Source: a virus
Taxonomy: Duplodnaviria; Caudoviricetes
Virus record (IMG/VR): IMGVR_UViG_3300021426_000072
Coordinates: 63,248 to 127,247 of that record
Direction: 5' to 3' (one strand)
Length of the DNA stretch: 64,000 nucleotides
A program made the translations under genes and the position numbers. Position 1 is the first letter of the stretch. Each line of letters begins with the position of its first letter. The notes under the pieces were generated by a model. The model made no database searches. It had not been told where the DNA came from and saw nothing but the letters and a program-made list of their open reading frames with translations. This document shows positions 9,054 through 31,926 of this stretch, in pieces.

Positions 9054-9068
9054 AGGAGATTTATAAAA

Positions 9069-9611: not shown

Positions 9612-9612
9612 T

Positions 9613-10326: not shown

Positions 10327-10404
10327 TAAGAAAAAATAAACTTAAAGAAACAGGGGCATATTATTCTTCAACGGGGAAAAACTTTATAAAAGAATATAGG
10401 AAGG

Positions 10405-14343: not shown

Positions 14344-15447
14344 GAAATTATCTAATTACCGATATGGGAGCAGGTTGTGATGGGGCTTGCTCCCTCTTTT
14401 TTCGGAGGTTAATATGACTATAAGATATTATGTTGAAGATACAGATACGTACTTTGATTCACCTGAAGATGCTGTAGAAGCTTGTATCGATTCTTCTTGG
14501 CACGAAGATGATACATATGATTTCAAAGATTGGGTTAATGAAAAGTATACGGCGTATGAAGTGTTGAATGATGAAGTCAGTCTTTCCAGTTTGCTTGAAG
14601 AATATTGCGAAGAGAAAAACGACGAAGATAGAGATGAAGCTCTTTGGGATTTGGATGGAGCAGAAAATGGATACGTTGTAGAAGTTCATGGCTCTTCTAT
14701 TAGAGTTGTAATTGAAGAAGAAACCATAGGTCAATCGATTGATATATGTCGTGAAATGATTGAACAACAGAAACAAAACGCCTTAAAAGAACAAGAAGAG
14801 CAAAAGAAAGATGATGATGTTTATCTCTGTGTTTTTCAGGAGGTAAAATAATGATTGCTTCTTTAACGGTAAGAAACGTCCAAAGTGAGAAGACGTTTGA
14901 TGAACTGTGCGCAAAACTAACCGAATACGATCTTGTTCGTTATGTTTTTGATGAAGGATCATACGATAGCAAAAGAAAGGAAGCCTATTTCTCTTCTTGG
15001 GAAGAAGAGAGTTGGCGATATTATCCAGCAGATATGCAAATTATTGCCGAAAGTTTTCCAAGTCTTGTTTTTGAATTGACTTGCCAAGCTGGTAATGATT
15101 ACTGGCGTGTTTATTATCAGGATATATCTAATGAAGTCTGCTTCGGAGAAGTTATATATCAAGCACCGGAAAAAATAAAGTGGGATGCTCTTGCCCCATT
15201 TTAATAAGAAAACATTATCATATATTACATGAGTTGAAACATGAAAGGATAATGCGTTTCGATGTTTGATGCAGAATTAATAAAACAAAGAATTTTAAAC
15301 TGTATGAATCCAGAGTATCCATGTGATAACTGTAGATATCGTAATAGTGGATGTGAGGAACATTTACTGTCTGATGCCGTATGCGTAATTTATGAATTAC
15401 AAACAGAAATAAATCAGCTAAAAGCAAGTGAACCGAAATAACTAATA

Positions 15448-15564
15448 GTATGGGTGGCGGAATATGTAGACGCTTAAAACGTAAGGCTTGTCGCCGTTAA
15501 CTAAAGTTCGACAGTTGCGTGACCGCAGTACTGCTATGTAAGGTGTAAATCCTTACCCCGTATT
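15448..15564 (+). ncRNA. tRNA-like RNA with the anticodon arm replaced by a long hairpin
   Basis: Acceptor GTATGGG/CCCGTAT; Leu-like D arm TGGCGGAATATGTAGACGC; T arm GTAAGG-TGTAAAT-CCTTAC; ~64-nt insert with no 7-nt anticodon loop. Confidence 0.6.
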
Positions 15565-15566
15565 AG

Positions 15567-15611
15567 TTAGGTACCAAAGTTTGAAGTCATTTAAAAAAAT
15601 GCATAATGGGA
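15567..15611 (+). promoter_or_regulatory. Conserved phage promoter-like motif, copy 2
   Basis: TTAGGTACCAAAGTTTGAAGTCATTTAAAAAAATGCATAATGGGA immediately before tRNA-Leu. Confidence 0.6.
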
Positions 15612-15614
15612 TAA

Positions 15615-15696
15615 GCGGATATGGTGAAATGGTAGACACTGAGGACTTAAAATCCTTTGGCTTTATGCCGTGAGGGTTCGAATCCCTCTATCCGCA
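15615..15696 (+). tRNA. tRNA-Leu(TAA)
   Basis: GCGGATA/TATCCGC acceptor; GAGGA-CTTAAAA-TCCTT anticodon arm; variable arm. Confidence 0.92.
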
Positions 15697-15710
15697 CTTA
15701 GGAGGCTTGT

Positions 15711-16028
15711 ATGGAAAAGAAAACATATTTCTTTATAACTGTTTTACAACGAATGAAAAAGGATAAACTTGGTTGGCCTGATACTGGAGCTACGCGGTGC
15801 TGGGGGTTTTATACAAATAAAGATACAGCAATCACAGCGCTTCATGAAAACTGGACGGATATGGAAGAAACGATTTACAAGTATGCCGTTCTGGAGGAGT
15901 ACGAAGAAGGAATATCCAATTTTACCGGTTACGAACAATGGTTTAAATTTGATGTTGAAAAAGACGGTTATTTTGAAATTGACAAACCTCCAGAGACAAA
16001 TCACTTTGCTGGATGGGCTTTTGGGTAA
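15711..16028 (+). CDS. Conserved phage hypothetical protein
   Basis: AGGAGG RBS; RCWGFY...ETIYKYAVLEEY pattern. Confidence 0.6.
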   Translation: MEKKTYFFITVLQRMKKDKLGWPDTGATRCWGFYTNKDTAITALHENWTDMEETIYKYAVLEEYEEGISNFTGYEQWFKFDVEKDGYFEIDKPPETNHFAGWAFG

Positions 16029-16080
16029 TCAAAAGAGAGAAGAAGCAGTTAATTACGTCAAACAACAAGGAGGAATAAAA

Positions 16081-16263
16081 ATGAAACATCTATACAACAA
16101 GCCTATGGCGGAGAAACTGGTATTCGATTATAGCGAAAACGTAGTGGCATCCACTAACAAACCTCATCATGGTGACATGGGAATTGGTCATGGAGGTGGC
16201 GGTGGTTGTGACCATAATCCCGGTCATGGAAGCCCTCATAAGCCTCATCCCGGAAAGCATTGA
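16081..16263 (+). CDS. 60-aa RiPP-precursor-like peptide with His/Gly-rich core
   Basis: AAGGAGG RBS; MKHLYNKPMAEKLVFDYSENVVAS leader (YxxP) followed by an H/G/P-rich tail. Confidence 0.55.
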   Translation: MKHLYNKPMAEKLVFDYSENVVASTNKPHHGDMGIGHGGGGGCDHNPGHGSPHKPHPGKH

Positions 16264-16464
16264 TGGAAAAAATAGAAGAAAACTACGTCCGTCGATACCT
16301 CATTGGTATTAGTTAGGACAAGATGGATGTTGGTTTTGCAAAAGTAAAAATAATTGCAGTTCTTGTAAAGCAAACAGAATTGCTGCAAAACAAGATAAGA
16401 AATTATTTAAACACAGAGACAAACAAAAATTATCAAAAGAAAATAATAAACAAGGAGAAAGAAA

Positions 16465-17247
16465 ATGGCTAATAAGAAGATCAAGGTAGAAGTTGAAACC
16501 AAGGAAGGAACTACTGAAACGATGGAGCTCCCTGAACGGGCAACAGAACGAATTGAAATCAAGAAAGTTCCTGTGGAAAAAGTGCGTATCAAGATCGTCG
16601 GAGATACTCCGCTTCTTGTTCACGCATGGTCTGAAAAGGTTAAGAAGCAGCTCCTCAATGATATGCAGATGACTAAACGTGAAAAGAAGGAAAAGGAACA
16701 CGAAAAGAAAGACCCGTTTGCAGACTTTGTTGAGGCTGCTTACTGGATTACTCCCATGCCGCAGGTGCGTGGTCTTGAACCCGAGAAACAGATCGAACTG
16801 TTTGAAAAGGCAATTACCGATGGTGCTCAGTTTGGCTTTCCTACAATTGCCTTCAAGAAAGCTGCTATTACCGCTTGCTATAGCGCAGGATACATTAAGA
16901 GTACGGCTCTTATGCGTCGGCTATTCCATGTGAACGCAGTTAACGGCGCACATATTGGATCGTCTCAGGAGCTTGCTATTATTAAGACGGAAGAACCGCC
17001 GGAACTGTCTGAAGACGTTGTAAAGGTTGGCCCTTTTAACAATCGTGTACCTGATCTTCGTTATCGTCCGTCTTTTCGTAAGTGGTCTGTTGAACTGGAA
17101 CTCAGTCTGATTAAGACAGGAATGTTTACAATGGAAGACGTTGTCAATGCAATTGATATGGGCGGTTTCATGAACGGCGTTGGCGAATGGCGCACTGAGA
17201 AAGACGGAGAATTTGGTAACTACCATGTTTATCGAGATGGGGAATAA
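16465..17247 (+). CDS. Stand-alone Cas7/RAMP-like protein
   Basis: RAMP-type motifs: IKIVGDTPLLVH (first beta strand), FGFPTIAFKKA (P..s.KG position), LRYRP-F-KWSVEL, and C-terminal G-rich loop GVGEWRTEKDGEFG. Confidence 0.7.
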   Translation: MANKKIKVEVETKEGTTETMELPERATERIEIKKVPVEKVRIKIVGDTPLLVHAWSEKVKKQLLNDMQMTKREKKEKEHEKKDPFADFVEAAYWITPMPQVRGLEPEKQIELFEKAITDGAQFGFPTIAFKKAAITACYSAGYIKSTALMRRLFHVNAVNGAHIGSSQELAIIKTEEPPELSEDVVKVGPFNNRVPDLRYRPSFRKWSVELELSLIKTGMFTMEDVVNAIDMGGFMNGVGEWRTEKDGEFGNYHVYRDGE

Positions 17248-17249
17248 TT

Positions 17250-17741
17250 ATGGCAGCATTTGAATACAAATATCGGATTAACGGTATTGTGAAAGCGCCT
17301 GCGGAAGTAACAGGCGAGGTGTGTCAGAATATTATTAGTGAAGAAGGAACTGTTACTCCAAAAAAGTTGGTTGATGTAAGTAGACCTGAAGACGCTCCTC
17401 TTCACGATGAATTTGAGTGGAATGACGATATCGCTGCTGAAAAGTATCGTGAAGAACAGGCAAGACAGATTATTAAGAACATTGTTATCATTGAAGTGTC
17501 AGATGATGTTGATGAACCTAAAGAAGTAAAATGCTGGGTTAACAGTGACCGAGCGTTTGTTCCGACAGACACGAGGCAGCATGAATATGTAACAATAGAT
17601 ACAGCATTAAACAATGCTGACTGGCGTAATAATTTGATTGAGTCGGCAAAAAGAGACATGCTTTCATTTGTCCATAAATATAAGAGACTCGGAGAGTTAA
17701 ATAAAATTATCACCGATATGAGCGAATTCCTTGGTGCCTAA
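17250..17741 (+). CDS. Partner protein of the RAMP-like gene, function unknown
   Basis: Starts 3 nt after the RAMP stop; VTPKKLVDVSRPEDAPLHDEFEWNDDIAAEKYREEQARQII motif. Confidence 0.7.
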   Translation: MAAFEYKYRINGIVKAPAEVTGEVCQNIISEEGTVTPKKLVDVSRPEDAPLHDEFEWNDDIAAEKYREEQARQIIKNIVIIEVSDDVDEPKEVKCWVNSDRAFVPTDTRQHEYVTIDTALNNADWRNNLIESAKRDMLSFVHKYKRLGELNKIITDMSEFLGA

Positions 17742-17797
17742 AAGTTAGAAGACGCTATAAGATCTTTCGGAGTAGGTGAAAGGCCTGAATATGGTTA

Positions 17798-18245
17798 GGC
17801 AGCCGGGGTTGGCATAGTTGCGTTGAGTAATGTCGAAGAGGGGCAAGGTATGGCAGTCTTGGTCAGTTGAGTACTGTTACGTTCAGTCAGGTCACGTTGG
17901 GGATAGGCAGTCGTGGAGTGTAACGTCACGATAAGTTGTGGATCGGAAAGCGTTGGCAGTCTTGGTGCTGTTTGTTACGTTAAGACTAGTTCTGGATTTG
18001 CTTGTTTAGTTGCGGCAGTCTAGGTACGCTATGATGCGTACTGTTAAGCAGAGAATAGGCAGTCAAGGTAGTGCCTGTTGAGTTCCGAATTGGATGGTTA
18101 TGCTATGGCAGTCTAGGTGTGGACAGGAGGCGGTTTGTCTGCGTTGGTCCCGTTACGGCAGTCGAGGTTAGTTCCGTTATGCTACGACCAGTTGGTTTAT
18201 GGCAGTCATGGCGAGCTGTTGCAAGTAGAGCTGTGTTCTGACTCA
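17798..18245 (+). repeat. Non-canonical guide-like array: 9 units, repeat GGCAGTCNNGG, variable part with 5-nt periodic G
   Basis: Repeats start at 17798, 17852, 17906, 17955, 18014, 18058, 18107, 18157, 18201; unit lengths 54,54,49,59,44,49,50,44. Confidence 0.85.
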
Positions 18246-18704
18246 GAAAAGACTTTCAGGAAAGACTGAATGGCGGCTCGGAAAGACGAGCATTTTTAAT
18301 ATGGAGTGATTGTAAATGAAATATAGTAAAGTTTATAACGCAGATCGAACATTGAGAGAAGAAATAAATCATTTATTAACCCATGAACCTCGTAGTGAAA
18401 GTGAAATGTTCAACGAAAATGATCATCTTTCTATAAGTGTGCGTTATCTGGATGGCAAGGTTGTGGTTATTGAAGTTTGTGGCTGTGTTGACTACAAAGA
18501 AAATGAGTCCAACATTCCTTGGACACAAGGAATACTATATTCCAAAGAAGGATATGAATTAACTGTAACTGAACCCAGAGATGAGTTTTTTGGAGAATGG
18601 AATTTTGTTTACGATGACAATATTTACATCCTGAATGTAATTTAATCAATCAAACCTGAAATATATCAGCATTGGCTGTTTGTAATAAGATAGCTATGAC
18701 AGAT

Positions 18705-18778
18705 GGATCATTAGCTCAGCAGGTCAGAGCAGTCGGCTCATAACCGATCGGTCTATGGTTCGAATCCATAATGATCCA
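18705..18778 (+). tRNA. tRNA-CAT (probably Ile2, possibly elongator Met)
   Basis: GGATCAT/ATGATCC acceptor; GTCGG-CTCATAA-CCGAT anticodon arm resembling Bacillota Ile2 tRNAs. Confidence 0.88.
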
Positions 18779-19726
18779 CTAATTAGGAGGATAGCGACGA
18801 GGAATGAGTGAACCGCATATGTGTATAACTTGTCAGAATTATGAACCGTATCATTGTACACTGGACGATTCATATATTGGATATCTGTACTGTGGCACTC
18901 CAACGAAATGCAGAGGATGGAGATTGCATGAAAACTATAAAAAGGGTGGCAAGTTCTATAACAATAGACGGAAAACAGTTCGTTAAAGAAATAAACGATA
19001 GATAGGAGATTAGTAAATAAGAATGTTCAATGATGATGAATATGCCAACAAGAAAATAGAAAATGCCCGTAAGTTGCATTATCTTGAAGGACGAATGAGC
19101 GTGGGACTTGAGAAACTGCAACCCGGTGACGGAGCTATTCTTGTGCATCAATGGGTGTTTGATCTGCTCTCAACGATAGTCAGCTATCTTCTTGAGTTGA
19201 GAAGGTGGCAGAAAATCCACGATAACAATTTTTAAGTTACTCAAAAAGTAATTGAAAAAATAGGAGGATTGCGAATGAGCATGGCGTTAGTGAATAGGAT
19301 TTGTCCAAAGTGCAAGAATCCAAATTATATGGTTTTCCTTGGCGATTTTTCAGAAAGATATAAATACAAGTGCATGAATTGTAATAGGTACTTTAATGAT
19401 GCTGACTTTGAAGAACAGTTTCAGCCTGTTTTAAGAAGTAAGAACTATGTGATTGTAGATATGCCGATAGAACAGGCGAGAACGATCATCGGATTAGTCG
19501 AAGATACCGTAAACGATGGTGAGTTTGAAACGGTATGGATGGATGACCAGAAAGAGCATTTGAAAAACTTTTTGGCAAGATACAAGGATGTACGTTAATA
19601 CGCTAAAGGAGCATATGGCGTATCAAATTGTCGATAACTGAATTGGTAAAATATCCGTATGTTTGCTGGTACAACAAGTAATTGGCGGTTAAATTGATAC
19701 GGTATAATTTAATATACCGTAAATTA

Positions 19727-19825
19727 CGGGCGTTTCGTAACGGAAACGAGGCTGCGAAAAGATAATGCGTAAATCCATTGTCGAAGTATGAGCTGCGGTG
19801 GTTGGTTCGATTCCTGCCCGCTCGA
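19727..19825 (+). ncRNA. tRNA-like RNA with an expanded anticodon region
   Basis: CGGGCG/CGCTCG acceptor-like stem; D-like TCGT-AACGGAA-ACGA; T-loop GGTTCGATTCC; oversized middle; abuts tRNA-Thr. Confidence 0.5.
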
Positions 19826-19828
19826 TAT

Positions 19829-19901
19829 GCCGGTATAGCTCAATGGGCAGAGCAGTTGATTTGTAATCATCAGGTTTCCAGTTCGAGTCTGGATATCGGC
19901 T
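19829..19901 (+). tRNA. tRNA-Thr(TGT)
   Basis: GCCGGTA/TATCGGC acceptor; loop TTTGTAA; T arm TCCAG-TTCGAGT-CTGGA. Confidence 0.88.
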
Positions 19902-20408
19902 CTAGGAATGCTGCTGACTTAATATCGATTAATGGTCAGGTGAAGAGTGCTATCGAGAATAGTCTGGCGAAGCAAATTGTCAGATATTGAACCCCCTTCG
20001 CGCGTGAAACCAAGAATATTAAATGAGGGTCTTGAAAAAAACATCTTCAGCATTCCTTTTACATGGAGAATTACAGGTTAAAATCCTGTGTTCTCCGAAA
20101 TGAAGGTACATTCAGGGACGCCTGATATTGAAGTCCACCAAAGTCACAGATTGGCTCGTTCCTTGACCGGGCGAATAAGAAGGGCTCAGGTGCGCACGTA
20201 AACCATATATAGAAAATGAAATCTGAGTATATGATAAAAGGACTTCTACCTTCTAGAGACTGACCAAATAATCGGGATCTTATATATCACTCCTGCGGGT
20301 AGTAAATAAGGACGTGGCTACTGAATAAGTACACCTGAAAGAACAGGACAGGGGCGCAGGTCACGTATAAGATTTCTTAACAGCCCGCCCGGTGGCGCAG
20401 TCTCGTAT

Positions 20409-20480
20409 AGCCCCTTAGCGTATCTGGCAGCGCAACGGACTTTGACTCCGTATGAGATGGTTCGAATCCATCAGGGGCTG
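20409..20480 (+). tRNA. tRNA-Gln(TTG)
   Basis: AGCCCCT/AGGGGCT acceptor; ACGGA-CTTTGAC-TCCGT anticodon arm. Confidence 0.9.
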
Positions 20481-22502
20481 CTCTTATTAATTGAATGAGG
20501 TAAACAAATATGATGAATGTTTATGATTTGTATCAAGGTTTAATCTGTATGTGTAAAGACAAAGAATGCTGTGAATGTTATGATTCTTGCCCGTATAAAA
20601 AGAGAAATGGGAATAAAGACAATTGTAACTATATGGTAGGACTTGATGCTTTGGAAACAATTGTAGAGTTAATGCAAGAAGTGGCTCAGTTAAAACAAGC
20701 TCTTAATGTTTCTGAAAAGGAGAAAAACGACAATGTTGCTACGACTTAAAGAACAAAACGTATCTGGATATTATGGTGTAGAACAAGCTATTATAAGAAA
20801 ACTTGGAGAAATTCCACCGGAGAGTTTGCTTGTTCAGATTAGAACAAAACACAGAGAAGATGAAGAATGGCGGGATATAACAGAACTGTTAATTCAAGAA
20901 GGAACCTCTGATGATCCTAAATGGATTTGGGAATCTGACTGGTGGGAAGGTGAGCAGTTTGTTGATCTCGTTGCTGTAGCTAAGATTTGGCAAGTTGACA
21001 TTAGTGAAGACTTTGCTTTTGAGGAATGATATGACATACAAAGAAGCTGCTGATATGATACGCGATGACATGCGTTTACATCATGATTATTTAAGTGGGC
21101 AATATAGGAAAGCTCTTAAACTTGCAGTCGAAGTCCTTGAAAAACAAAATGAACCGACTTCTCCTAAATGGAGAAGCGATCCTGTAACAAAAGCACAAAA
21201 AGAAATGATTGCACAGATGCAGGAAAATGCTGGTATAAATGGAGCGTTACATTTACCTGAGTTTACGGGAACAACTAAAGGTGAAGCCTGTGATTATATT
21301 CAGGCAAACGCCCATAAACAATATGAAACAATGGACTATTTGTGCCATGAAGATGCAGGTGACAGAAATGGTTAAGTTGACAGCAAGTCTTGAACACTGG
21401 CTTTTTGTAAATGAGCCCAAATTATTGGTTTTAATTGGATTTGGACATCTTGAATGTTTTACCGAAGAAATGCAAAAGAAGTATTTGGAGTGGGTACAGA
21501 CAGAAGAAGGACGGTCATATCTAAAAGGTGGAAAGAACTACCATGACCCAAGATAAATAAAAGAAAGAAGAAAAAGAATCATGACTATGTATGTTGATTT
21601 TGCTGTTCAAAAGAATTGTTGGAATTTAATTGATAGTTATGGAGAAATGTGTGTTGGCTGCGGATGCTGCCTAAAAGACAAAAAGAAACGTTATGAAAGC
21701 CGCATTCGCTGCCTTGAACGATGGATAGATGAATGGAAAAATTTTGACGGCTGGATCGAAGGATGTGAAGATCTGCAAAGAAAGAACATCAGGTCAAATC
21801 TCAAATACTTTAATCGGAGATTGCGTTATTACAAATCCAGGCTGAAAAACATGGGTAATGAAAAATGAATAAGACTAAAGCACTTGTTGAACGTATCAAC
21901 GCTGACGTTGAAATGCTTGTTAATTCAGAGAGTATGACAGATTGTACTTCTGCTTATGTTCGTGTTATGGACTACCTTGCTAATCTTTATCTTTCAGTAA
22001 TGAAAAAGCATGTAAAAGCGGGAAAAGATCATATGTCAGTATTGCCAAAGAAAGATTGTTAAGGAAATGAGAATGTATAGCAAAGTAGATATTGGGCTGA
22101 GATGCTGTTTGGCTGATGATAGTGATTGTAAGCTTTGTCCTTATATGGGCAAAGGCACAGCGAAAATAGACTGCGCAACGCTCCTTATGAGAGACGTTTT
22201 AGAACTAGTTGAATGTCAGGAAATAAAGATAGGTATACTGCAAGTCGAAAATAGGGCATTGATAGATGCACGAATTAGAGCTTCAAAAAGAGAAGATAAA
22301 AAGAAAGGCAAACCAAATGAGCGCAACAGTTTATAAATGGATTGTTGTCTATGAAGATGGTAGAACCGAGGAAAAACGGGGAGAAGCTCCGTGGTCTTTT
22401 GCAGATGAATTGGATGAAACTCCAGTTGCTATCATCAGAAACGGATGGTAATAAATTATTGCGGGTAATGGAAAAGGTATAAATTCTTGCCCCGCAATTT
22501 AT

Positions 22503-22574
22503 GGCTTGTTAGCCTAGTGGGTTAGGCACGCGGCTGTTAACCGCGCTAGGGGAGTTCAATTCTCTCACGAGCCG
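22503..22574 (+). tRNA. tRNA-Asn(GTT)
   Basis: GGCTTGT/ACGAGCC acceptor; CGCGG-CTGTTAA-CCGCG anticodon arm. Confidence 0.88.
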
Positions 22575-22993
22575 CATCTTATTTTATTGCGATGCCTTAG
22601 TTGGTCGTAATACAAATAAGATTGAAGGACTTAACGTTCTTCTGGGGGTTGTTTTTACAACCGCTACCTAGCTAGTAGTAAAAAAAGCTTTAACTGGGTG
22701 GCGCCCGCTCCGAAGTTATGCCCGCCAGAGACAAAAGATCGCGTATTCCGTCTAGCCAGCGGATATAAATCGACGATTTATGTACAGAGCATTAAGTGGT
22801 AATTAGATAGGAGCATTATATCATCGCCGCCGCAAGCGACGGCACATACCGGGAAAACCCCACCTTACCCAAACTTTAAGCATATACATGCTTCCGCATA
22901 AAAGTTTGGGTTCTACACGCAGAAATAAAGATAAAATTGTCTGCGTAAAACCACCATAACAAAAGGATTAATAAAAAAAGGAGTGATTAATTT

Positions 22994-23605
22994 ATGGTGA
23001 AGGTTTATTGCACTACTACTGCTGGACGGTCTTGCGATCTGTTTGACGAGAACACGAAAATTCGTGAGGTTTTCGAACATTTCGGTGCGGACTATAAAGT
23101 AGGAACAAACAGTATCGAAAACGTTCGCATTACCAAGGAAGGTCTGGAAAAGACTCTTCTGGAGTGGAAAGCTGGCGATGTGTGCCATCTGTCTTGCATT
23201 GTGAAGATTGACAATGCTGCTCGTATGGAAGTTTCTGGCGCTGCTGCTATCCTGATTTCCGATGTTTCTCTGGAAGACTGGAAGCGTGTTGAAAAGTATG
23301 CTCCTGAAGCTCTGAAGCTGTTCGACGAAAACGGAGATGCAGACTTTAAGGTTTCAACTCGTGGTTCTGCCTCCGGTACTATCACTGATCATGGCGTATC
23401 TTTCGGTGCTTACAGCAACAAAGAAGGTAAGGCTACTGTTACTATCATGCTGGATACTGGCAACGAAGATAAGGTTGCTGCTGTTAAGGAGCTGTTCGGT
23501 AACACGCTGCTTGATCTGAATCGCATTGAAGCGAAGATTCCTGAGACACTGAAAGATATCGCAAACAAAGAAGCGGAGATCGGTAAGCTGATTACTGAAG
23601 CTTGA
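22994..23605 (+). CDS. Putative ubiquitin-like (beta-grasp) domain fused to a ~128-aa C-terminal domain
   Basis: First ~75 aa fit a beta-grasp pattern ending ...LSCIVKIDNA; lies directly upstream of E2/JAB/E1 genes. Confidence 0.5.
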   Translation: MVKVYCTTTAGRSCDLFDENTKIREVFEHFGADYKVGTNSIENVRITKEGLEKTLLEWKAGDVCHLSCIVKIDNAARMEVSGAAAILISDVSLEDWKRVEKYAPEALKLFDENGDADFKVSTRGSASGTITDHGVSFGAYSNKEGKATVTIMLDTGNEDKVAAVKELFGNTLLDLNRIEAKIPETLKDIANKEAEIGKLITEA

Positions 23606-23617
23606 TCTCCGTTGCAT

Positions 23618-23653
23618 TAGGGAGCCGGGTGTTGTAACCCGGCTCCCTATTTT
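23618..23653 (+). terminator. Terminator/attenuator between the Ubl gene and the E2-like gene
   Basis: TAGGGAGCCGGG/CCCGGCTCCCTA stem followed by TTTT. Confidence 0.7.
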
Positions 23654-23677
23654 AAAAGAAATGGAGATATAAAAGAA

Positions 23678-25210
23678 ATGTTTAGAGAAGCAATTGCTCT
23701 CATTGATCCTATTCCGAAAGAATATGGAAATAATCTTATTCGTCTGAACGACGAAGTTGACTGGTCTTTAACCTGCCTTGGTTTGGCTTTACTTAAATCT
23801 CGAATTCCCGACTATAATGGAATTGCTGGAAGATGCGATTTGTACGAAACAAGATCTACTTTAAGAAATTGTATCATGCATTTTAAAGCGGATAAACAGG
23901 CCGCTGAAGAAGAGCATCCAGATTGTCCGGCATTCTTTTACTATACATACAGAAGTGATGAAGACGTTAATGTTCTGGAAGAATTAAACGATCCTTCCTT
24001 CAAAACAAATATAAAAATTGAAACATTAATTCGTCAGAAATCAGAAAGCAAATGTCACGTTATTTACAATGATACCAAGCCGTGTGCTGCTATTTTCATT
24101 GATAATCGTGACATTAGAATTTATCATCTTTTAATTTCGTTTCTCTCTTTGTATTTCCCGACTCTGTTTGCTGAAAAGCCAATGGAGAAAAAAGATTATG
24201 ATGTTGTGGTCACCCTGAATAAAAAGGAACAAGAACCATTTATTCAGGCGATTAAAGAAGCTTTAATCCCGTATGTTGGTGATTTCAAAAAGACGCAAAT
24301 GAAAGCGCTGATTAAAGCAATGCACAACAGTAAAATCAACGCTGTCTTCAAAGCTCTCACAAAACAGCGGGAATACTCAACTTCTTTAATGAACCAATAT
24401 CGCGAAGCTCAAAGAGAAGTTAGAAGATTAAGTATTGAATATGAAGGATCTCTGGTTGTAGAAACTATGGACGAACCAGAGGAAGAACTTGTTGACTTTA
24501 TTTCTTCTAACGAACAAGTTCGTACTTTAACTATGAATGGAAACGAAATCCGGTTTACAGTTCCTACCAGATTAAATAATTTTAACTGGGAAGAGTTTGA
24601 AAGCAGTAGACGCCGTGATGAAATTTCTCCAGCAGATGGAATCTTCAATGGAAAGTATGAACATGCTGGCTGGGGTACAAACAATCTTTTACCTGTGTTT
24701 ATGGAGAGAGAAAACCGGAAGAAATTCTTGAGTTATATCTTTCGTGAGGATTCTGATATCTCTGTCAAGATTGTAAGTAATTATATTCTTGATCTTGTAG
24801 CGAATACAGCAACGGTTAACAAAAACTTCAATTATATTGAAGCTGATCCAATGTATAAAGATTATATTCCGAATCCTCATCATAAAATATTTGCATGTCT
24901 TGGTGGTTATGAAGGCAGAATTCCAGATTTGCTGGCAAAAAGAAATTATGTTGCTGCCGTTCAGCTTTGTATTGCGTCTGCAAGCAGCATTGATATTGCT
25001 GAAAATGAGCAGACGTTCCGTCCTTTCTTGTCTTGGTTGATGACATCAAAGAATAAGGTTCTTATCAGGAACGATGGAGAGAATATGACTCCTGAAGAAG
25101 CTCTGATTTGGATCATTGACAAAGAAAAGAACGAAGCAAAACAGAATGAAGTAGAAGTAAAAGTTGACTTGGAAACAACAGAAACGAATAACGAGGAGAA
25201 AACAGAATGA
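23678..25210 (+). CDS. Coiled-coil protein with C-terminal prokaryotic E2-like domain
   Basis: YIPNPHHKIFACLGGY resembles the E2 HP...CLG catalytic motif; stop overlaps the JAB start (ATGA). Confidence 0.55.
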   Translation: MFREAIALIDPIPKEYGNNLIRLNDEVDWSLTCLGLALLKSRIPDYNGIAGRCDLYETRSTLRNCIMHFKADKQAAEEEHPDCPAFFYYTYRSDEDVNVLEELNDPSFKTNIKIETLIRQKSESKCHVIYNDTKPCAAIFIDNRDIRIYHLLISFLSLYFPTLFAEKPMEKKDYDVVVTLNKKEQEPFIQAIKEALIPYVGDFKKTQMKALIKAMHNSKINAVFKALTKQREYSTSLMNQYREAQREVRRLSIEYEGSLVVETMDEPEEELVDFISSNEQVRTLTMNGNEIRFTVPTRLNNFNWEEFESSRRRDEISPADGIFNGKYEHAGWGTNNLLPVFMERENRKKFLSYIFREDSDISVKIVSNYILDLVANTATVNKNFNYIEADPMYKDYIPNPHHKIFACLGGYEGRIPDLLAKRNYVAAVQLCIASASSIDIAENEQTFRPFLSWLMTSKNKVLIRNDGENMTPEEALIWIIDKEKNEAKQNEVEVKVDLETTETNNEEKTE

Positions 25211-25971
25211 GACATCTAATATTGTCTGAAAAAGAAAAGGAAATTTTGCGTAAAGAATTCTCAACTGCCTTTGATAAGGCAGTTGAGGAGTTTTCTTTTA
25301 ATGCTTCAAAGGAGAAATTTTCTTTAACCGTAAAGTTTAATAAGCCTTCGGAGCAAAAGGTCGTCATTTCTTATACACCACAGGCTTTTGTTAAGATGTA
25401 TTCTCTTGTTCATTATTATGATACCGAAATTGGTTGGTATGGCTTAGTAGAAAAGACAGGAGAATATTCGTACCGGGTTTATGATGTAAAAATCTGTAAG
25501 CAACTCGTAGATGCAGGCCGGGTAAAAACAGACGATGACGACACCAGAGAATTTTACAATTCACTGACAGATGAAGAAGTTAATGCTATGCGTTTTCAAG
25601 CTCACTCTCATGTGAATTTTAAAACTACTCCTTCTGAAATTGATATTCAGAATCAGATTCAAATTGTAAAATCTCTTAGGAATAAAGGGTTTTATATCTT
25701 CCAGATTTGGAATAAGAAAGATGATATTAATTCTTTCGTATTTGATCTTGACGCAGGCGTTATGTACGATAAGGATGATATTATTTGCACAATTGAAAAT
25801 GATGATTCAAATATTACGGATTGGCTGATGGAAACAAAAGCCTGTGTTGTGGAAAAGAAAGTACTTCCTGCTTATCCTTATTATCCTCAAAACGGAAATG
25901 TTAAAACAGAAGGATGCCAGAAGGAATTCTTTCAGGATGAATCCGGTTGGAACGAGAGGTTTTACGAATGA
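25207..25971 (+). CDS. JAB/MPN metallopeptidase (deubiquitinase-like)
   Basis: EIGWYG glutamate plus HSHVNFKTTPSEID (HxH-x7-S-x2-D JAMM motif). Confidence 0.8.
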   Translation: MRHLILSEKEKEILRKEFSTAFDKAVEEFSFNASKEKFSLTVKFNKPSEQKVVISYTPQAFVKMYSLVHYYDTEIGWYGLVEKTGEYSYRVYDVKICKQLVDAGRVKTDDDDTREFYNSLTDEEVNAMRFQAHSHVNFKTTPSEIDIQNQIQIVKSLRNKGFYIFQIWNKKDDINSFVFDLDAGVMYDKDDIICTIENDDSNITDWLMETKACVVEKKVLPAYPYYPQNGNVKTEGCQKEFFQDESGWNERFYE

Positions 25972-26639
25972 ATTTAGCTAAAAGTGCAGAATTTTTCGAT
26001 CCGTTTTCCTGTAAAGGGAAAATTCACATTATTGGATGCGGATCTGTTGGATCTACTGTAGCAGAACTGTTAGCTCGTTTTGGGCTGACTAATGTGAATT
26101 TATATGATTTCGACACGGTTGCTGAACATAATCTGGCCAATCAGATGTTTGTATTGGATGATGTTGGGAAAAATAAAGCAGAAAAGGTATATGACCGTTG
26201 GGTAGAAATCAATCCTGAAGCAGCACATACTATCCGTGTTTTCAAGGAAGGATGGAACGGACAGAGGTTATCAGGATATGTCTTTCTCTGTGTTGACAAC
26301 ATTGAACTGAGAAAGAAAATTGTCGAAGAAAATAAGTACAACCTTGACGTTAAAGCAATGTTCGATTTCAGAACTGCTTTAACCGATGGTCAGCATTATG
26401 CTGCTGACTGGGAAAGAGATGACGACATAGAGCATTTGCTTGACACAATGGACTTTACGCATGAAGAAGCAGAAAAGAATGTTCCTGTAAGTGCATGTAA
26501 AATTGCTTTATGTGTAATGCCAACCGTATGGTCTGTAGCAATGTCTGGTGTTGTGAACTTTATTAACTTCGTCAAATATGGAAAACTTGAAAAGTCAATG
26601 ATTGTAAAACCATTTGATTTTGAAACTATTATATTCTAA
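25968..26639 (+). CDS. ThiF/E1-like adenylyltransferase
   Basis: IHIIGCGSVGS, YDFDTVAEHNLANQ, LCVDN, candidate catalytic Cys in PVSAC; ATGA overlap with JAB. Confidence 0.88.
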   Translation: MNLAKSAEFFDPFSCKGKIHIIGCGSVGSTVAELLARFGLTNVNLYDFDTVAEHNLANQMFVLDDVGKNKAEKVYDRWVEINPEAAHTIRVFKEGWNGQRLSGYVFLCVDNIELRKKIVEENKYNLDVKAMFDFRTALTDGQHYAADWERDDDIEHLLDTMDFTHEEAEKNVPVSACKIALCVMPTVWSVAMSGVVNFINFVKYGKLEKSMIVKPFDFETIIF

Positions 26640-27050
26640 TGCATAAAGAAATAAATCTTATTGTATAGGGTTTACATTTAATGTTATTAGATGTTTCACT
26701 TTGACCGGAAATGGAGGCACGAAGGCCTACGGCCGTCGGGACGACGTACTGGGCTCGAACCGGTGGCTGCAAAGCGTGCTGCGGGCTGCGAAGTGGCGGA
26801 GATGCTCGAGACGCAGTTCAACTGGATCAGACTTATCAGGATCTCGATAATTAACTATCGAAATGATAGGTGAAAGCCGGATGACTGAAGAAACTGATGA
26901 ACGGGAGATCGCGCAAGGAAGCAGGTGAAGTCGTGTTGGCGACAGCGCGGCACACGATCGGAATGAAGGGGCCCGGGGTCACATGCCTCAAAGGCGCCTG
27001 CAGCCAGGTCCTCCAGGAGACTCCAGCTCTCAACATTTTTAGTTTATGCA
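26640..27050 (+). ncRNA. Candidate RT-associated ncRNA (msr/msd-like position)
   Basis: GC- and purine-rich ~410-nt spacer in an AT-rich genome, bounded by inverted repeat TGCATAAA(26640-47)/TTTATGCA(27043-50), directly upstream of the RT. Confidence 0.55.
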
Positions 27051-27063
27051 AAGGAAGAAGAAA

Positions 27064-28218
27064 ATGTATTACGTAACAACAGTATTAAGCAAAAAGCCTG
27101 TGCAGTTAACATGGGAAGATGTCATGTTTGATAAGGTGCCGTTGAATGCACTGCAAATGAATGAATCAAACGGTACGTCTACGATCACAAGAAAATATGA
27201 AACAATTAGTCCCGAAATTCTTGAACAGGCTGATGTAGAAAAGATTATTAATTGGCTAAAACTATACAATCTTCGGTATAAAGAACTTTTTGAAAAAGAC
27301 AGAAAAACTTTATACCACAGTTTCAAAATTCCTAAAGCCACGGGAGGGTATAGAGATATAAATGCTCCGTGCGACGAACTTCAGGATGCTCTTCGAGTAT
27401 TGGTAAGATTCCTGTCTGAAGATTGTGGGATTTTATATCATACGGCTGCGTTCGCATATATTAAAGGACGCAGTATTGTTGATTGTGTGAAAAGACATCA
27501 GAATTTCAACAGCAATTGGTTTTTGAAAACTGATTTCAGCGGGTTCTTTCCGTCTACCACAATCGAATTTGTAATGAAAATGTATTCAAAGATATTCCCG
27601 CTTTCGGAAGTATGTAAAAATGAAGAAGGTTATGCTGAATTAAAGAAAGCATTGTCTCTTGCTTTTCTGGACGGCGGACTTCCGCAAGGAACTTGTGCTT
27701 CCCCGTTCATTACAAATTCAATGATGATTCCGATTGACCATAAATTGTCAAATGAATTTGCGAAGCGGAATTTAATGTATACCAGATATGCAGATGACAT
27801 TCACATTTCTGCAAAAGAATGTTTCCCGTGGAAAGAAATCGTGAAAAATATTGAAGACGCACTGACAGAGTTTGAAGCTCCTTTCAAGATTAAGCCGGAA
27901 AAGACTCATTTCGGTAAGAAGGCTGGCAGATCTGCAAACTGGTGTTTAGGACTTCTTTTGAATAAAGATAACAATATTACAGTTTCTGCCAAGAAGAAAG
28001 CTCAGTTTAAGGCTTCTTTGTGTTCATTTATTCTTGATACACGGAATGGAAAATATTGGAATCTCGAAGATGTATATCATTTAAGAGGTTTGCTTTCTTA
28101 TTACAGCATGGTTGAAAAAGAGTATTTTGAAAATGTAATTAAGCAACAAGAGAACAAATGGAAAGTAAACGTAAGCAAAATTTTTAAAGATTATTTAAGC
28201 GGAACTATTAATGCGTGA
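27064..28218 (+). CDS. Retron-like reverse transcriptase
   Basis: IPKATGGYRDINAP, AFAYIKGRSIVDCVKRH (region X), KTDFSGFFPS, LPQG, YTRYADD; CLGL at the VTG position. Confidence 0.9.
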   Translation: MYYVTTVLSKKPVQLTWEDVMFDKVPLNALQMNESNGTSTITRKYETISPEILEQADVEKIINWLKLYNLRYKELFEKDRKTLYHSFKIPKATGGYRDINAPCDELQDALRVLVRFLSEDCGILYHTAAFAYIKGRSIVDCVKRHQNFNSNWFLKTDFSGFFPSTTIEFVMKMYSKIFPLSEVCKNEEGYAELKKALSLAFLDGGLPQGTCASPFITNSMMIPIDHKLSNEFAKRNLMYTRYADDIHISAKECFPWKEIVKNIEDALTEFEAPFKIKPEKTHFGKKAGRSANWCLGLLLNKDNNITVSAKKKAQFKASLCSFILDTRNGKYWNLEDVYHLRGLLSYYSMVEKEYFENVIKQQENKWKVNVSKIFKDYLSGTINA

Positions 28219-28282
28219 GAAAAGAAATGCAGGATATTTCTGCTCAATAAATGTTATTTGTTGAAACAACAAGTATTATATA

Positions 28283-28371
28283 AACTTTTACCATGAAATA
28301 GTTCAAACACGAATTTTCGCGGGTTCAAGAACCCAGCTCAAATTCTTGTTGGAACTATTTCAGGTAAGGTT
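28283..28371 (+). ncRNA. Long imperfect hairpin downstream of the RT
   Basis: TGAAATAGTTC/GAACTATTTCA, GAATTT/AAATTC and GGGTTC/GAACCC nested stems. Confidence 0.6.
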
Positions 28372-28396
28372 GTGATAAATCATAGTTTTCTTGCGC

Positions 28397-28429
28397 AGAG
28401 CGGGTATAAAAATACTCGCTCTTTTTTTT
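28397..28429 (+). terminator. Rho-independent terminator closing the Ubl-RT unit
   Basis: AGAGCGGGTAT/ATACTCGCTCT followed by a T-tract. Confidence 0.8.
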
Positions 28430-28668
28430 ATGTGGAGTTACGCCTATGTATTAATACCGAGCTGGCCTCTCGGTGCTCCGTAATTTAATAAAAAAGAAAG
28501 ATGTGCTACAACTCCCCTTGTGCTTGTTTGGACGGCGAGTAGCATAAATCAGATTTCTCTCCATACGTCTTTTTGTTCGAGATATCTCACACAAGATACA
28601 CCTTCATGTTGACCTTTCTGTATGGAGTTATTTTCTGTAAGAAGGTTCTGTGGTTGCAGAACCTTTTT

Positions 28669-28729
28669 CGAATGTTAGTTTAAGTAAAACGACTTTAAGT
28701 AAATGAAAGTTCAAATCTTTCACATTCGA
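28669..28729 (+). ncRNA. Mini tRNA-like RNA with a truncated anticodon arm
   Basis: CGAATGT/ACATTCG acceptor; TAGTTTAAGTAAAAC D-like arm; GAAAG-TTCAAAT-CTTTC T arm; only 61 nt. Confidence 0.55.
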
Positions 28730-28985
28730 ATTATTACTGAGCGATAGAACACTTATTGGTTTATTGGCATGGCCCGTCATTTAAATAGTTATGACGTTAA
28801 ATGTGATCGAGTTTGCGGATGGACTCGGCACCTCCTTTCAGTAAGAGACATTAACCAATAGGACACTATCATCCTGCCTGCTCAAGCATGAACCCTATAC
28901 GGTGCGTGTCTCTCGCCGTCTTGACAGGGAAGGCATCTCCATAAGGCAGGACTTTTGAATATAATTGGTTTGTTTCGGTAATTAT

Positions 28986-29030
28986 TTCGGTACCGAAATT
29001 TGAAGCCATTTAAAAAGATATATAAGGGAA
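28986..29030 (+). promoter_or_regulatory. Conserved phage promoter-like motif, copy 3 (upstream of the RNAP gene)
   Basis: TTCGGTACCGAAATTTGAAGCCATTTAAAAAGATATATAAGGGAA. Confidence 0.7.
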
Positions 29031-29076
29031 AACGAATAAAAAACAAATCAAACAAAAATTGAATATGGAGGAGCAT

Positions 29077-31926
29077 ATGTCTGAGAAAACATATCTTAAA
29101 GAGCAAATTAGATTAGTATCATTGTCTAGCTATGATCTGTTTACAGATGAGGAATATGACCTCTATATGCAAATAGTAAAATTAAAAAATCAACTGGATT
29201 TGTTGGATGAAGAGGAATACGATCCTGATGAAAGAAAGCAGCTTCTTGCTGATAAGAAAAAGGCAAGGATCTCTCTTGAACGTTTAATTGCAGAGCATGA
29301 AAATATTCCTCGAACAGTAAGACTGTCATCTGTAATTTATTATCCTAAATATGCGGAATATCCATTCCCGGAAGGCATTACATATAATAATCTGAAAACA
29401 AACAAGAAGATTGCTGAGTTTTGTTGTGAACTGTCCAGAGCTATGGGTCTAAAGAATCTCGACCGAACTCTGGACTTAGTTGTTATGAAATGGAAAAACA
29501 CAGAAATTCTCAGGCAAATTGTTATAAATGGATTTTATATGCCAATTCTCACAGAGGACGGTGTGGTGAAAAAACATTATCGGTTCTTTACTGCAAGCAG
29601 CGGACAATTAAGAACAGATAAGTTTATGGCAATTTCAGATGATGCATGGGCGAAAATCCGAGACAGACTTGAATGCGGGGTTGGATGGAAAGAGATTAAC
29701 GCTAAAGGCGGAATTAATGCTAATAAGCTGAGTGCTTATGAAGCTCTTCCTAACTCAGCGACAGAAGAGTGGACAGACTTTGATATTGACAGAATGATTG
29801 TAGTCGATGACTTTGAAGGAGAAGTTACAGACCGCATGATTTATATTAAGCCTGATTACACATGGGAGTCCGGGGTTAAGACTGTGAAGATAAAACACAC
29901 CGACGGGTGTGGCATGATTCTCCCGTCTGTTTCGGGCGGTAACTTTATGATTAGGGCTCCTTACATTAAAGGGCTTCTTATTGTCTTCGACTTTATAAAG
30001 TTCTGTAAAGTTAACAATGTTCCGGCTGTTGTTACGGACATTTACGGTAAAGAACATGATTTAATTAAAGAAAATATTCAAATTATCATCTTTAAAAGTA
30101 TGTTTAAACTATGGAAATATTATAACAGCTGGGATGAATATAAAGAACATTTCAAAAAGAATAAATGCAAAGTTGGCAAGACGAATTATGAAGAAGAATA
30201 TCTGGCAAACAAAGCGTTAAACTATCAAATGATTCAAACTCTTACAGACTTTACAGATGAAGAAATAAAAGAATTTGTTAAATATGAGCATGATCGAATT
30301 CAAGGAATAACAAAAGATAGAGATGCAATGTTGAAAACTTTGAGGGCTAGTCCAGATTCTGAACAGCCGTATAAAGCAGCATTGGCATTATATCCAGAAC
30401 TGTTACGGGAAGCTTATAGTAAAGAATCATTAAAGAACATCAGGAAAAGAATGCTCCTTGATGCCAAGTCAGGTAAGCTGAAGCTTAATAAAGAAAAGGG
30501 TGGCAACAAAAGACTGTTTGCTTGTCCTGACTTATATGGAATTTGTGAGTGGTTGTTCTGCCATGATCCAAAGCCGAAAGGCCTTTTGAGAAATGGTGAA
30601 GTTGCCTGTAAGATATTCAGGCGACATGACAAGGTGGATGTTCTAAGATCGCCTCACCTTTCGATGGAACATGGGCTGAGAAATGTAGCTCACGATCCGA
30701 GCATATATGAATGGTTCTGTACGAACGGATTATACAGTTCGTTACATGATTTACTGAGCCGACTTTTGCAACTGGATTGGGATGGCGACCAATTAAACGT
30801 AGTTGCAGATCCATTGTTTGTTTCAATAGCAGAGAGAAACATCAAAAAATATGATGTAATTCCATTGTTTTATGATGCAGATACGGCAGATGCAGAGAAA
30901 ATTGATTTTGAAGCAATGTATCGTGCATTAAAACGAGCTCATGACTTCTCTGCTGGAGAAATTACAAGCATCGGTGAGATATCCAACATGCTGACAAGAT
31001 TATGGAATAAAGATAATCCTGATCGGGATGTTGCAAATCTTCTTACAATGTTTAACAATCTGGTGATTGATGCTGCAAAGTCCGGCAAAATAAATCATTA
31101 TAAAGATTATCCTCAAGTAGCAAAGAGAATAGGCAGAGCTACCGGAGGTAAAAATGGACGTATGCCATATTGGTTCAAGTACAGTAAAAACGGCAGAAAG
31201 AATGTTTCACAGAATAAAGATAAAAAGTATGGCGAACTGAACAGCTCTACCATGAGCCGTATTTGTATGGCATTTTCCGACATAGGAAACATCAATATGA
31301 ATTATGCCGGAATTCCTCAGTTCAATTGGCAAATGCTGCTTAGTGAGCCATGCCCAAATTCAAAACCTGAAATCCAGGAAATGTTCTGTGAAATGGATAA
31401 CGCAAATAAAGCATCTGTAATTGAATCACAGGATGTGTCCTATACAAGTGAAAAGCAATTAGTAAATGGATATGCAATCGTAGCAGAAGATATTATCAAC
31501 AGAATGATTGAAAGATACGGTTCTCTCGAAACTGTATATCCTTATATAGCCAAATATTTATTCGCGGGTGAGGGACAGAACAAGTCTGCTCACAAGCAAA
31601 TGTTCTGGCGAGTATTTGGCGAGATTGCTTTAAGAAATATTAAGGCTAACCTTACCAACTGCGATACTTGCCCTTCTTGTGGGATAAAAATACCAAGCTG
31701 GGTAAAGAATCATATTTGCATAAAGAATACACAAGGGTTTTATGAGTGCATAGACTGTGGAGCTATGTGCGAAAGAAAGAACCCTCTTCAATGCAGATGT
31801 GAAGGTTGTCAGGAAAAATACAGAGCAATAACAAAGAAAGCCCGTCAGAGAGAAAGAAGAGAATTGCATAAGGAGTTGATCGCAAAACGTACTACAGTCT
31901 TGCAATCGTTCTCGACAGAGATGTAA
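29077..31926 (+). CDS. YonO-like single-subunit two-barrel DNA-dependent RNA polymerase
   Basis: LDWDGD catalytic motif, RSPH, TDGCG, IRAPYIKG, IDAAKSG; C-terminal Zn ribbons. Confidence 0.82.
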   Translation: MSEKTYLKEQIRLVSLSSYDLFTDEEYDLYMQIVKLKNQLDLLDEEEYDPDERKQLLADKKKARISLERLIAEHENIPRTVRLSSVIYYPKYAEYPFPEGITYNNLKTNKKIAEFCCELSRAMGLKNLDRTLDLVVMKWKNTEILRQIVINGFYMPILTEDGVVKKHYRFFTASSGQLRTDKFMAISDDAWAKIRDRLECGVGWKEINAKGGINANKLSAYEALPNSATEEWTDFDIDRMIVVDDFEGEVTDRMIYIKPDYTWESGVKTVKIKHTDGCGMILPSVSGGNFMIRAPYIKGLLIVFDFIKFCKVNNVPAVVTDIYGKEHDLIKENIQIIIFKSMFKLWKYYNSWDEYKEHFKKNKCKVGKTNYEEEYLANKALNYQMIQTLTDFTDEEIKEFVKYEHDRIQGITKDRDAMLKTLRASPDSEQPYKAALALYPELLREAYSKESLKNIRKRMLLDAKSGKLKLNKEKGGNKRLFACPDLYGICEWLFCHDPKPKGLLRNGEVACKIFRRHDKVDVLRSPHLSMEHGLRNVAHDPSIYEWFCTNGLYSSLHDLLSRLLQLDWDGDQLNVVADPLFVSIAERNIKKYDVIPLFYDADTADAEKIDFEAMYRALKRAHDFSAGEITSIGEISNMLTRLWNKDNPDRDVANLLTMFNNLVIDAAKSGKINHYKDYPQVAKRIGRATGGKNGRMPYWFKYSKNGRKNVSQNKDKKYGELNSSTMSRICMAFSDIGNINMNYAGIPQFNWQMLLSEPCPNSKPEIQEMFCEMDNANKASVIESQDVSYTSEKQLVNGYAIVAEDIINRMIERYGSLETVYPYIAKYLFAGEGQNKSAHKQMFWRVFGEIALRNIKANLTNCDTCPSCGIKIPSWVKNHICIKNTQGFYECIDCGAMCERKNPLQCRCEGCQEKYRAITKKARQRERRELHKELIAKRTTVLQSFSTEM

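Follow-up and report, generated by a model that had tools for sequence, protein, structure and literature searches.

The 64,000-nucleotide stretch of DNA analyzed here (the window) is the second half, positions 63248-127247, of the IMG/VR virus record IMGVR_UViG_3300021426_000072 (Duplodnaviria; Caudoviricetes), a phage record of 127,247 bp judged to be 92% complete. Between window positions 22994 and 28430 it carries, in this order, a gene for a ubiquitin-like protein (Ubl) fused to a partner domain (Cdom), a gene for a 510-aa protein (p510) in the slot of an E2 enzyme, genes for a JAMM/JAB metallopeptidase and a minimal ThiF-type E1, a candidate noncoding RNA (ncRNA-1), a gene for a retron-clade reverse transcriptase (RT), a second candidate noncoding RNA (ncRNA-2) and a terminator (Table 1).

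An earlier note on this DNA had described here a Ubl-like first gene, E2-like, JAB and E1 genes coupled by ATGA overlaps, a 410-nt GC-rich spacer with an ncRNA candidate, an intact, retron-like RT with a YADD active site, and a long hairpin with a terminator, no terminator lying between E1 and RT. Most of this description stood. Residues 1-75 of the 203-aa first protein have a beta-grasp Ubl fold, as proposed for this open reading frame (ORF). ATGA overlaps are read in the sequence at the p510/JAB (25207-25210) and JAB/E1 (25968-25971) boundaries, the latter setting the E1 start at ATG 25968, while the label E2-like was given up for reasons explained below. The E1-RT spacer (26640-27045) measures 406 nt, with a GC content of 0.51 versus 0.38 in the genome, and contains a putative ncRNA of retron type, with a1/a2 repeats and a G after a1. 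The plus-strand scan found no terminator between E1 and RT and none before 28397; the long hairpin and the terminator are present, the hairpin being the predicted msd of a second retron ncRNA. The RT has an RVT_1 match, and its start was placed by the alignment of relatives at ATG 27064 (M-Y-Y-V-T), not at 27046. The downstream canonical ncRNA-2, the presumably cleavable Ubl fusion ending in ...DNA and the hypervariable template of ncRNA-1 are new with respect to the earlier note.

Table 1. Features of the module in window coordinates.
Feature	Position	Strand	Details
Ubl-Cdom ORF	22994-23605	+	203 aa
Ubl beta-grasp domain	22994-23218	+	residues 1-75 of the 203-aa ORF, ends K-I-D-N-A
Cdom, 128-aa partner domain fused after Ala75	23219-23605 (stop codon included)	+	beta-rich, then 40-residue helix
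GC-rich hairpin followed by TATTTT	23615-23653	+	between the Ubl-Cdom gene and p510, read directly
p510 ORF	23678-25210	+	510 aa; N-terminal alpha/beta domain, 68-residue helix, C-terminal domain with invariant His401 and Cys407
JAB/JAMM metallopeptidase ORF	25207-25971	+	254 aa; PADLOC JAB 1.2e-4 (weak), motif H-S-H-x7-S-x2-D in translation
Minimal E1 ORF, single ThiF-type adenylation domain	25947/25968-26639	+	223 aa from ATG 25968; Pfam ThiF 7.1e-20
Candidate ncRNA-1, 411 nt	26640-27050	+	a1 TGCATAAA 26640-26647, G 26648, a2 TTTATGCA 27043-27050
Putative ncRNA-1 msr hairpins	26653-26673 and 26674-26694 (loop AATGTTATT)	+	conserved box onward to about 26708
Putative ncRNA-1 template, GC-rich, irregular	to 27042	+	ends TTTTAG; several short hairpins
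Retron-clade RT ORF, YADD active site	27046/27064-28218	+	384 aa from ATG 27064; Pfam RVT_1 4.9e-20; YADD within YTRYADD
Candidate ncRNA-2, 186 nt, canonical retron shape	28212-28397	+	a1 28212-28223 (covers RT stop codon), G 28224
Putative ncRNA-2 msr hairpins	28229-28243 and 28251-28279	+	constrained fold
Putative ncRNA-2 long msd hairpin	28286-28368	+	then ATAG, a2 28386-28397
Intrinsic terminator, operon end	28397-28430	+	site 28397-28422, 11-pair stem + T8

Scans with an RT profile identified RT relatives in viral contigs (at least 539), genome contigs (42) and metagenome contigs (at least 560); the best 80 of the viral, all 42 of the genome and the best 80 of the metagenome relatives were analyzed. 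Cassette genes were sought with hidden Markov models built from the window's cassette in those loci that had at least 5.2 kb of upstream DNA. All four (Ubl, p510, JAB and E1) were found upstream of the RT in 92 of 96 unique viral and genome loci and in 37 of 40 unique metagenome loci. Taken together, 129 of 136 unique RT loci carry the full cassette at RT identities to the window of 37-68%, and the predicted tie of this RT clade to E1 and JAB genes across phages was thus borne out. Among the seven exceptions, the module is cut off by the contig end in L180; only the Ubl gene was not detected in L080; about 6 kb are inserted between E1 and RT in L105 and L193; and the remaining three loci are considered below. 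L122 keeps all four genes, with E1 placed after the RT. E1 and the ncRNA are separated by an extra gene of 250-300 aa in 35 of 93 loci (including L025, L033, L036, L040, L058 and L093): L040 and L093 have DUF6273 there, L071 has DUF5688, and three other representatives have no Pfam match. The reverse question, whether the cassette occurs without the RT, rests on the loci of three p510 homologs with 25-32% identity, each of which is adjoined by JAB, ThiF and RT genes; scans of viral contigs with p510 revealed no locus beyond those of the RT scans. Judged by this conservation, the block 22994-28430 is a single conserved module, the set being inherited together. In L011 and L132 (IMGVR_UViG_3300028886_000058, 124,601 bp) the RT is at the start of the contig and p510 at its end, so the module runs across the contig ends, which would fit a complete genome or one that is circularly permuted.

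All 25 best PADLOC matches of the RT are retron RTs (top match RT_II-A, 3.5e-50). In NCBIfam the best match is retron_St85_RT (2.3e-54), and group II intron RT follows at 2e-19; because the St85 score of 184.6 bits is below the cutoff of 235, the protein is of the retron kind yet in no named family. The hallmarks of retron RTs are the NAXXH motif between RT2 and RT3, with H as the most conserved residue, and VTG in RT7, with G as the most conserved residue (PMC7736814). In an alignment of seven RTs, H151 and G302 are invariant, within the motifs D-C-V-K-R-H and C-L-G (N-L-G in relatives). By its profile matches, the RT belongs to the retron clade. Membership in type II-A (St85/Sen2), the effector of which is reportedly nucleoside-deoxyribosyltransferase-like, was rejected, as the RT scores under the family cutoff and no protein of the operon matches that effector family.

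The classical shape of a retron ncRNA (Mestre et al., PMC7736814) is that of ncRNA-2. Such an RNA has one to three hairpins in its msr and a single long, stable stem-loop in its msd. Its a1/a2 stem has 12 bp with two G-U pairs, and the fold of 28215-28440 has z = -7.6, none of 200 shuffles being as stable; the same layout is repeated in L002, L012, L014, L019, L023 and L009. More generally, the E1-RT gaps and the DNA downstream of the RT in relatives follow a common plan: a1, a G, two hairpins, a box resembling GTAACAAnTTG, the GC-rich start of a long variable stretch, (T)TTAG or TGTAG, and a2, the upstream copy ending directly before the ribosome-binding site of the RT. The a1 and a2 words vary by locus but stay complementary, for example, CACTTAAA/TTTAAGTG, CATGCAAT/ATTGCATG and GCGTAAT/ATTACGC.

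Since an unanchored scan for a1/a2 has a background of about one match per kb, only the anchored scan is informative. A strict signature (8 bp with at most one G-U pair, G after a1 and AG before a2), anchored at the RT start or stop, ends just 5' of the RT start in 67 of 112 unique loci (60%; 36 different a1 words) and begins at the RT stop in 53 of 108 unique loci (49%; 25 different a1 words). Most shifts of the anchor gave 2-13%, and two shifts landing on the other ncRNA gave higher values, as expected. A G directly follows a1 in both ncRNAs of the window and in the relatives read by eye; in the anchored scan this G was required and is therefore no independent evidence. The shared msr hairpin (loop ATGTTAT) has eight pairs, seven of which show compensatory changes in relatives. 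The number of copies varies: there are three in L003-L006, two in tandem upstream of the RT in L012, and none upstream in L009. Rfam, searched at gathering and at permissive thresholds, yielded no retron or other family on either ncRNA. These observations argue that both elements flanking the RT are retron-type msr-msd ncRNAs, the inverted repeats being found in both and the long msd only in ncRNA-2. The template of the upstream ncRNA in L023 (6683-7000) contains a run of 22 A.

Variability of the upstream ncRNA was assessed in four groups of close relatives, with 4-fold degenerate sites as the neutral proxy. In three groups identity is 96-98% for the RT DNA and 87-94% for the 4-fold sites; within the ncRNA it is 100% over the initial 60 nt, 90-97% over the last 40 nt and 71-83% in the interior, so that the template interior is 2.2-3.6 times more diverged than the 4-fold sites. 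The fourth, more diverged group features the same pattern (RT gene 76% and interior 50% identical). The substitutions are mostly transitions, mosaic between alleles and without adenine specificity, and template 26700-27042 has no second copy or relative in its own genome, phage records or plasmids. Two known kinds of RT-driven variation or gene synthesis were considered and rejected. A diversity-generating retroelement does not fit a retron-type RT and a template that lacks a second genome copy, and its adenine mutagenesis does not fit substitutions spanning all four bases. A gene written by reverse transcription (Neo-like) is not indicated, since the longest open frames in 60 templates equal those of shuffles (z 0.5 for sense and 0 for antisense).

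Metatranscriptome contigs match the window with 100% identity at 26710-26952, 26738-27015 and 26797-27013, that is, inside the ncRNA-1 template. They are assembled contigs with a depth of 2-5 from three runs, of which two belong to what is probably the source sample and the third to a different study. One run adds two fragments of the RT gene; E1, ncRNA-2 and the msr part of ncRNA-1 are not covered, an absence that proves nothing with assembled contigs. A DNA run covers the module region evenly. At such depth, an unusual abundance of the ncRNA-1 template in RNA libraries, as RNA or as DNA made by the RT (RT-DNA), is a hint only.

The proteins of the cassette are conserved to different extents. 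The fusion of Ubl and Cdom is a feature of the window's lineage (junction ...K-I-D-N-A/A-R-M, the slash marking the border); in most relatives Cdom is a separate gene product of about 130 aa (129-134) encoded just 5' of a free Ubl gene, and this free Ubl has 75-84 aa. K-x-D-N-A is the exact C-terminus in 31 of the 43 unique free Ubls that carry the motif, most others being longer by 1-4 residues. The occurrence of the Ubl both free and fused at K-x-D-N-A implies processing by the JAB protein. In the structure model the confidence falls below 50 at residues 71-75, the junction, which would fit a precursor cut by the JAB enzyme. No protein family or fold could be assigned to Cdom, and a search of the ESM Atlas with it gave no usable match. 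The hairpin between the Ubl-Cdom gene and p510 may be an attenuator that could keep the yield of the Ubl precursor above that of the enzymes.

The JAMM motif (H.H.{7}S..D) is kept in 102 of 103 unique JAB homologs. The closest relatives of the E1 among solved structures (PDB) are TcdA, MccB, MoeB and Cap2; its G-C-G-x2-G loop, D54, D56, K77, D117 and Cys184 recur without change in 66 sequences. In L005/L006 a 186-aa protein that is very acidic is encoded between JAB and E1. The p510 protein, the structure model of which has a confidence (pLDDT) of 90, represents a family of 2,537 cluster representatives at 50% identity. His401 and Cys407 (N-P-H-x5-C-x-G) are invariant in 66 p510 sequences with identity falling to 14%. 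A BFVD search with p510 identified one uncharacterized phage protein (7.9e-19) without annotation, and the ESM Atlas provided a weak lead (0.87) to a viral cluster with Prok-E2_D in 14% of its members. The predicted complex of E1 and p510 scored 0.01 and control runs are absent, so the value is evidence neither way.

We then compared the module with known systems. Retrons consist of an RT, an msr-msd ncRNA and an effector and have been divided into 13 types (Mestre et al. 2020, PMC7736814). The module shares with them the YADD RT, the terminal inverted repeats of the ncRNAs, the G after a1, the msr hairpins, the accessory genes in the operon and, for ncRNA-2, the long msd stem-loop. It differs from them in the number of ncRNAs, two or three for each RT and located on both its sides; in the length of ncRNA-1 (270-410 nt) with its long, irregular and hypervariable template; in the RT motifs, which are D-x-x-K-x-H and C/N-L-G instead of NAXXH and VTG; in its carriers, which are large phages instead of bacterial islands; and in the accessory genes, which form a Ubl conjugation cassette. 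To our knowledge, such a cassette is not among the 13 classes of retron effectors.

The bacterial ubiquitin-like anti-phage systems BilABCD (Type I/II) (10.1101/2023.09.26.559546; 10.1101/2023.09.04.556158) have the operon order Ubl, E2, deubiquitinase (DUB) and E1, and the DUB pre-processes the Ubl (10.1101/2023.09.26.559546). The window and 129 loci have the same order of Ubl, E2 slot, JAB and E1, with the second gene counted by its slot and not as an E2. The Bil E2 has the UBC fold, with a catalytic Cys and a conserved His close to it. Other shared features are a beta-grasp Ubl that would need C-terminal trimming by JAB, a Cys-bearing E1, a Cys/His-bearing second enzyme and a JAB/JAMM protein. 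On the other hand, the Ubl of the module ends in Asp-Asn-Ala, whereas that of Bil has a C-terminal Gly exposed by the DUB, and it comes with a partner domain of 130 aa, either paired or fused. The module's E1 consists of one 223-aa adenylation domain, whereas the Bil E1 has two adenylation domains, one active and one inactive, plus a mobile CYS domain; the protein in the E2 slot has 510 aa and falls in no recognized E2 family; and the module is phage-encoded and tied to an RT and ncRNAs. With such a Ubl C-terminus, a minimal E1 and a second enzyme of unrecognizable kind, the cassette falls outside the BilABCD family.

Similarity to CBASS (anti-phage signaling that is based on cyclic oligonucleotides) type II and to 6A-MBL is seen in the best defense matches of the E1 (Cap2, 2.6e-16; cap2_3, 7.3e-17) and in the Cap3-type match of JAB (1.2e-4), but these matches extend over only some 70 residues, in the nucleotide-binding part, and are far under the family cutoffs. 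Moreover, the E1 and the E2 slot of the module are unfused, unlike the fused E1-E2 of Cap2, and a scan of six proteins encoded in the block and shortly downstream of it gave no CD-NTase match. The PRTRC cassette (ParB- and ThiF-related; TIGR03736) with Prok-E2_D likewise has a ThiF-type E1 on a mobile element, but the weak PRTRC_ThiF match (9.8e-10, 38 bits) is far under the cutoff of 144.75, and ParB was not found among the scanned proteins.

As to the genomic surroundings, the DNA runs that hold the stretch come from animal gut or rumen metagenomes. Nearly all genes of the window up to 58 kb are on the plus strand, and the phage encodes a primase/helicase, a DNA polymerase, exonucleases and an integrase. 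The latter is a tyrosine integrase at 51520-52542 (phrog_1, 1.1e-38), and the phage is therefore probably temperate. Interspersed between the small ORFs that lie upstream of the module (7652-22575) are nine genes for tRNAs (Ser, Lys, Pro, Arg, Leu, Met, Thr, Gln and Asn). Megablast of the module region against phage records gave no match. Directly 3' of the module, a 955-aa protein (29059-31926) has a D-W-D-G-D motif and C-terminal Cys clusters and matches phrog_8308 (function unknown). Its homologs, which bear a weak mark of PF05183 (RNA-dependent RNA polymerase, RdRP), follow the RT throughout the window's lineage; the protein is likely a YonO-like two-barrel phage RNA polymerase. A promoter-like box, GGTACCGAA..TGAAG...TATAAGGGA, lies upstream of its gene (28975-29035), and the same box closely follows the ncRNA-2 terminators of L002, L012 and L014. 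In the window, a non-coding stretch of about 550 nt (28430-28975), absent from the close relatives, parts the terminator from the box.

With moderate confidence, we read the module as a phage-borne retron with a Bil-like Ubl conjugation cassette as its effector arm. The role of the cascade as the retron's effector, the direction of control and the biological purpose, for which the earlier note had proposed superinfection exclusion or counter-defense, are what we infer beyond the gene content. In the proposed mechanism, JAB would cut the Ubl-Cdom precursor after Ala75 (...K-I-D-N-A); the E1 would adenylate the C-terminus of the Ubl and take it onto Cys184; and the Ubl would be handed to Cys407 of p510 and from there to a target protein. 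The RT would prime from the 2'-OH of G26648 and G28224 and make two RT-DNAs, a hairpin DNA of roughly 80 nt and a long irregular one. As in other retrons, the complex of RT and RT-DNA might be the sensor or scaffold, here restraining or aiming the conjugation arm, and the fast-evolving template of ncRNA-1 would be the part exposed to the arms race. Given the integrase, the likeliest use seems to be to protect the lysogen or infected cell from competing phages, with counter-defense as the second option.

Several observations weigh against this interpretation. In three loci (L111, L119 and L212) the 7 kb upstream of the RT are free of cassette genes. The last residue of the Ubl is Ala instead of Gly, and Cys184 of the E1 sits inside the single adenylation domain, there being no separate catalytic-Cys domain. 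The 330-nt template of ncRNA-1 has a fold z of -1.9 and no long msd stem-loop typical of retrons, and the RNA-library contigs, which are assembled, strandless and of low depth, cannot part RNA from RT-DNA. In the window's lineage the module adjoins replication genes and the phage RNA polymerase. Finally, an E2 fold of p510 found no confirmation: Foldseek of its model against the PDB found nothing at E<=0.001, Pfam searches with all 66 members revealed no E2 (Prok-E2) family and no meaningful match, and PDB sequence profiles gave coiled-coil noise only. Hence, of the two folds that the earlier note had foreseen, the beta-grasp of the 203-aa protein was found and the E2 fold of the 510-aa protein was not; in view of the invariant His and Cys, we refer to p510 as a His/Cys enzyme in the E2 slot and not as an E2.

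Some of these observations could be explained with a reverse wiring, in which the cascade would not be at the retron's service: either it would modify the RT, Cdom or host defense proteins, or the long hypervariable RT-DNA would itself be the relevant product, for example, a decoy or sponge for host nucleic-acid-sensing defenses, and the phage would use the module to overcome immunity in lytic growth. The phage-borne module does lie among early and replication genes adjoining the phage RNA polymerase, and Cdom is always co-encoded 1:1 with the Ubl, like a dedicated substrate or adaptor; however, no known anti-defense protein family was detected, and the phage carries an integrase. The hypervariability of the template would be expected of a molecule meeting host factors, but the template has no mimicry-like similarity to phage, plasmid or own-genome DNA. 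As the characterized retrons and Bil systems are all defense systems, too, we regard such a reverse wiring or counter-defense device as unlikely.

The place of the module beside replication and RNA polymerase genes also makes a role in the life cycle conceivable, the RT-DNA and Ubl tagging serving the phage's own replication, recombination or morphogenesis, for example, by priming, by supplying donor DNA for the adjoining recombination genes or by modification of virion or replisome proteins. In the window's lineage the module always precedes the genes of the YonO/RdRP-like RNA polymerase and of the protein that binds single-stranded DNA (SSB), the single-strand annealing protein (SSAP) and the primase, and its divergence is in step with that of the neighbors (compared with L002, RT 68%, E1 72% and RNA polymerase 64%). 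The same module, however, also occurs in phages of other backgrounds that lack this polymerase (L001, L004-L006 and the majority of viral loci), where it behaves as a portable accessory unit, and its template shows neither conservation nor homology to the phage genome; we consider a life-cycle role improbable.

That a Bil-like cassette and an effector-less retron are two independent systems travelling together in a phage accessory island would agree with the clustering of defense genes, the inserts in L105 and L193, the transposed E1 of L122 and the extra gene in about a third of the loci, but this is very improbable given that nearly all loci keep all parts down to 37% RT identity, no terminator parts the halves in the window, no other effector candidate accompanies the RT and every p510 homolog locus looked up carries the RT.

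Literature searches on retrons or RTs with ubiquitin-like, JAB or ThiF genes returned only reviews and unrelated papers, and those on crAss-like phages and phage-encoded retrons nothing relevant to the module. We found no paper joining retron and Ubl-conjugation genes, in agreement with the earlier note, which named no described system of this composition.

In summary, the most economical reading of the module would be a new type of retron that has Ubl conjugation as its effector arm and that temperate phages carry, probably to compete with other phages. Retrons and bacterial ubiquitin-like systems, both active fields of research, are joined here in one operon, and the module is very common, its carriers being large gut and rumen phages. 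If the reading is true, protein conjugation would be a new class of retron effector beside the nuclease, NADase and membrane toxin; a single retron RT would serve two or three templates; and the E1 and Ubl would represent a minimal chemistry with a C-terminal Ala. The long-template ncRNA may also interest users of retrons for the production of long single-stranded DNA in cells. A further and quite improbable extension is that the RT-DNA is, besides a tripwire, also a programmable specificity element, the product of ncRNA-1 recognizing competitor or host nucleic acid, or a protein bound to nucleic acid, and directing attachment of the Ubl. RT-dependent renewal of the template would then explain its divergence faster than that of neutral sites, and the module would be a case of nucleic-acid-guided protein tagging.

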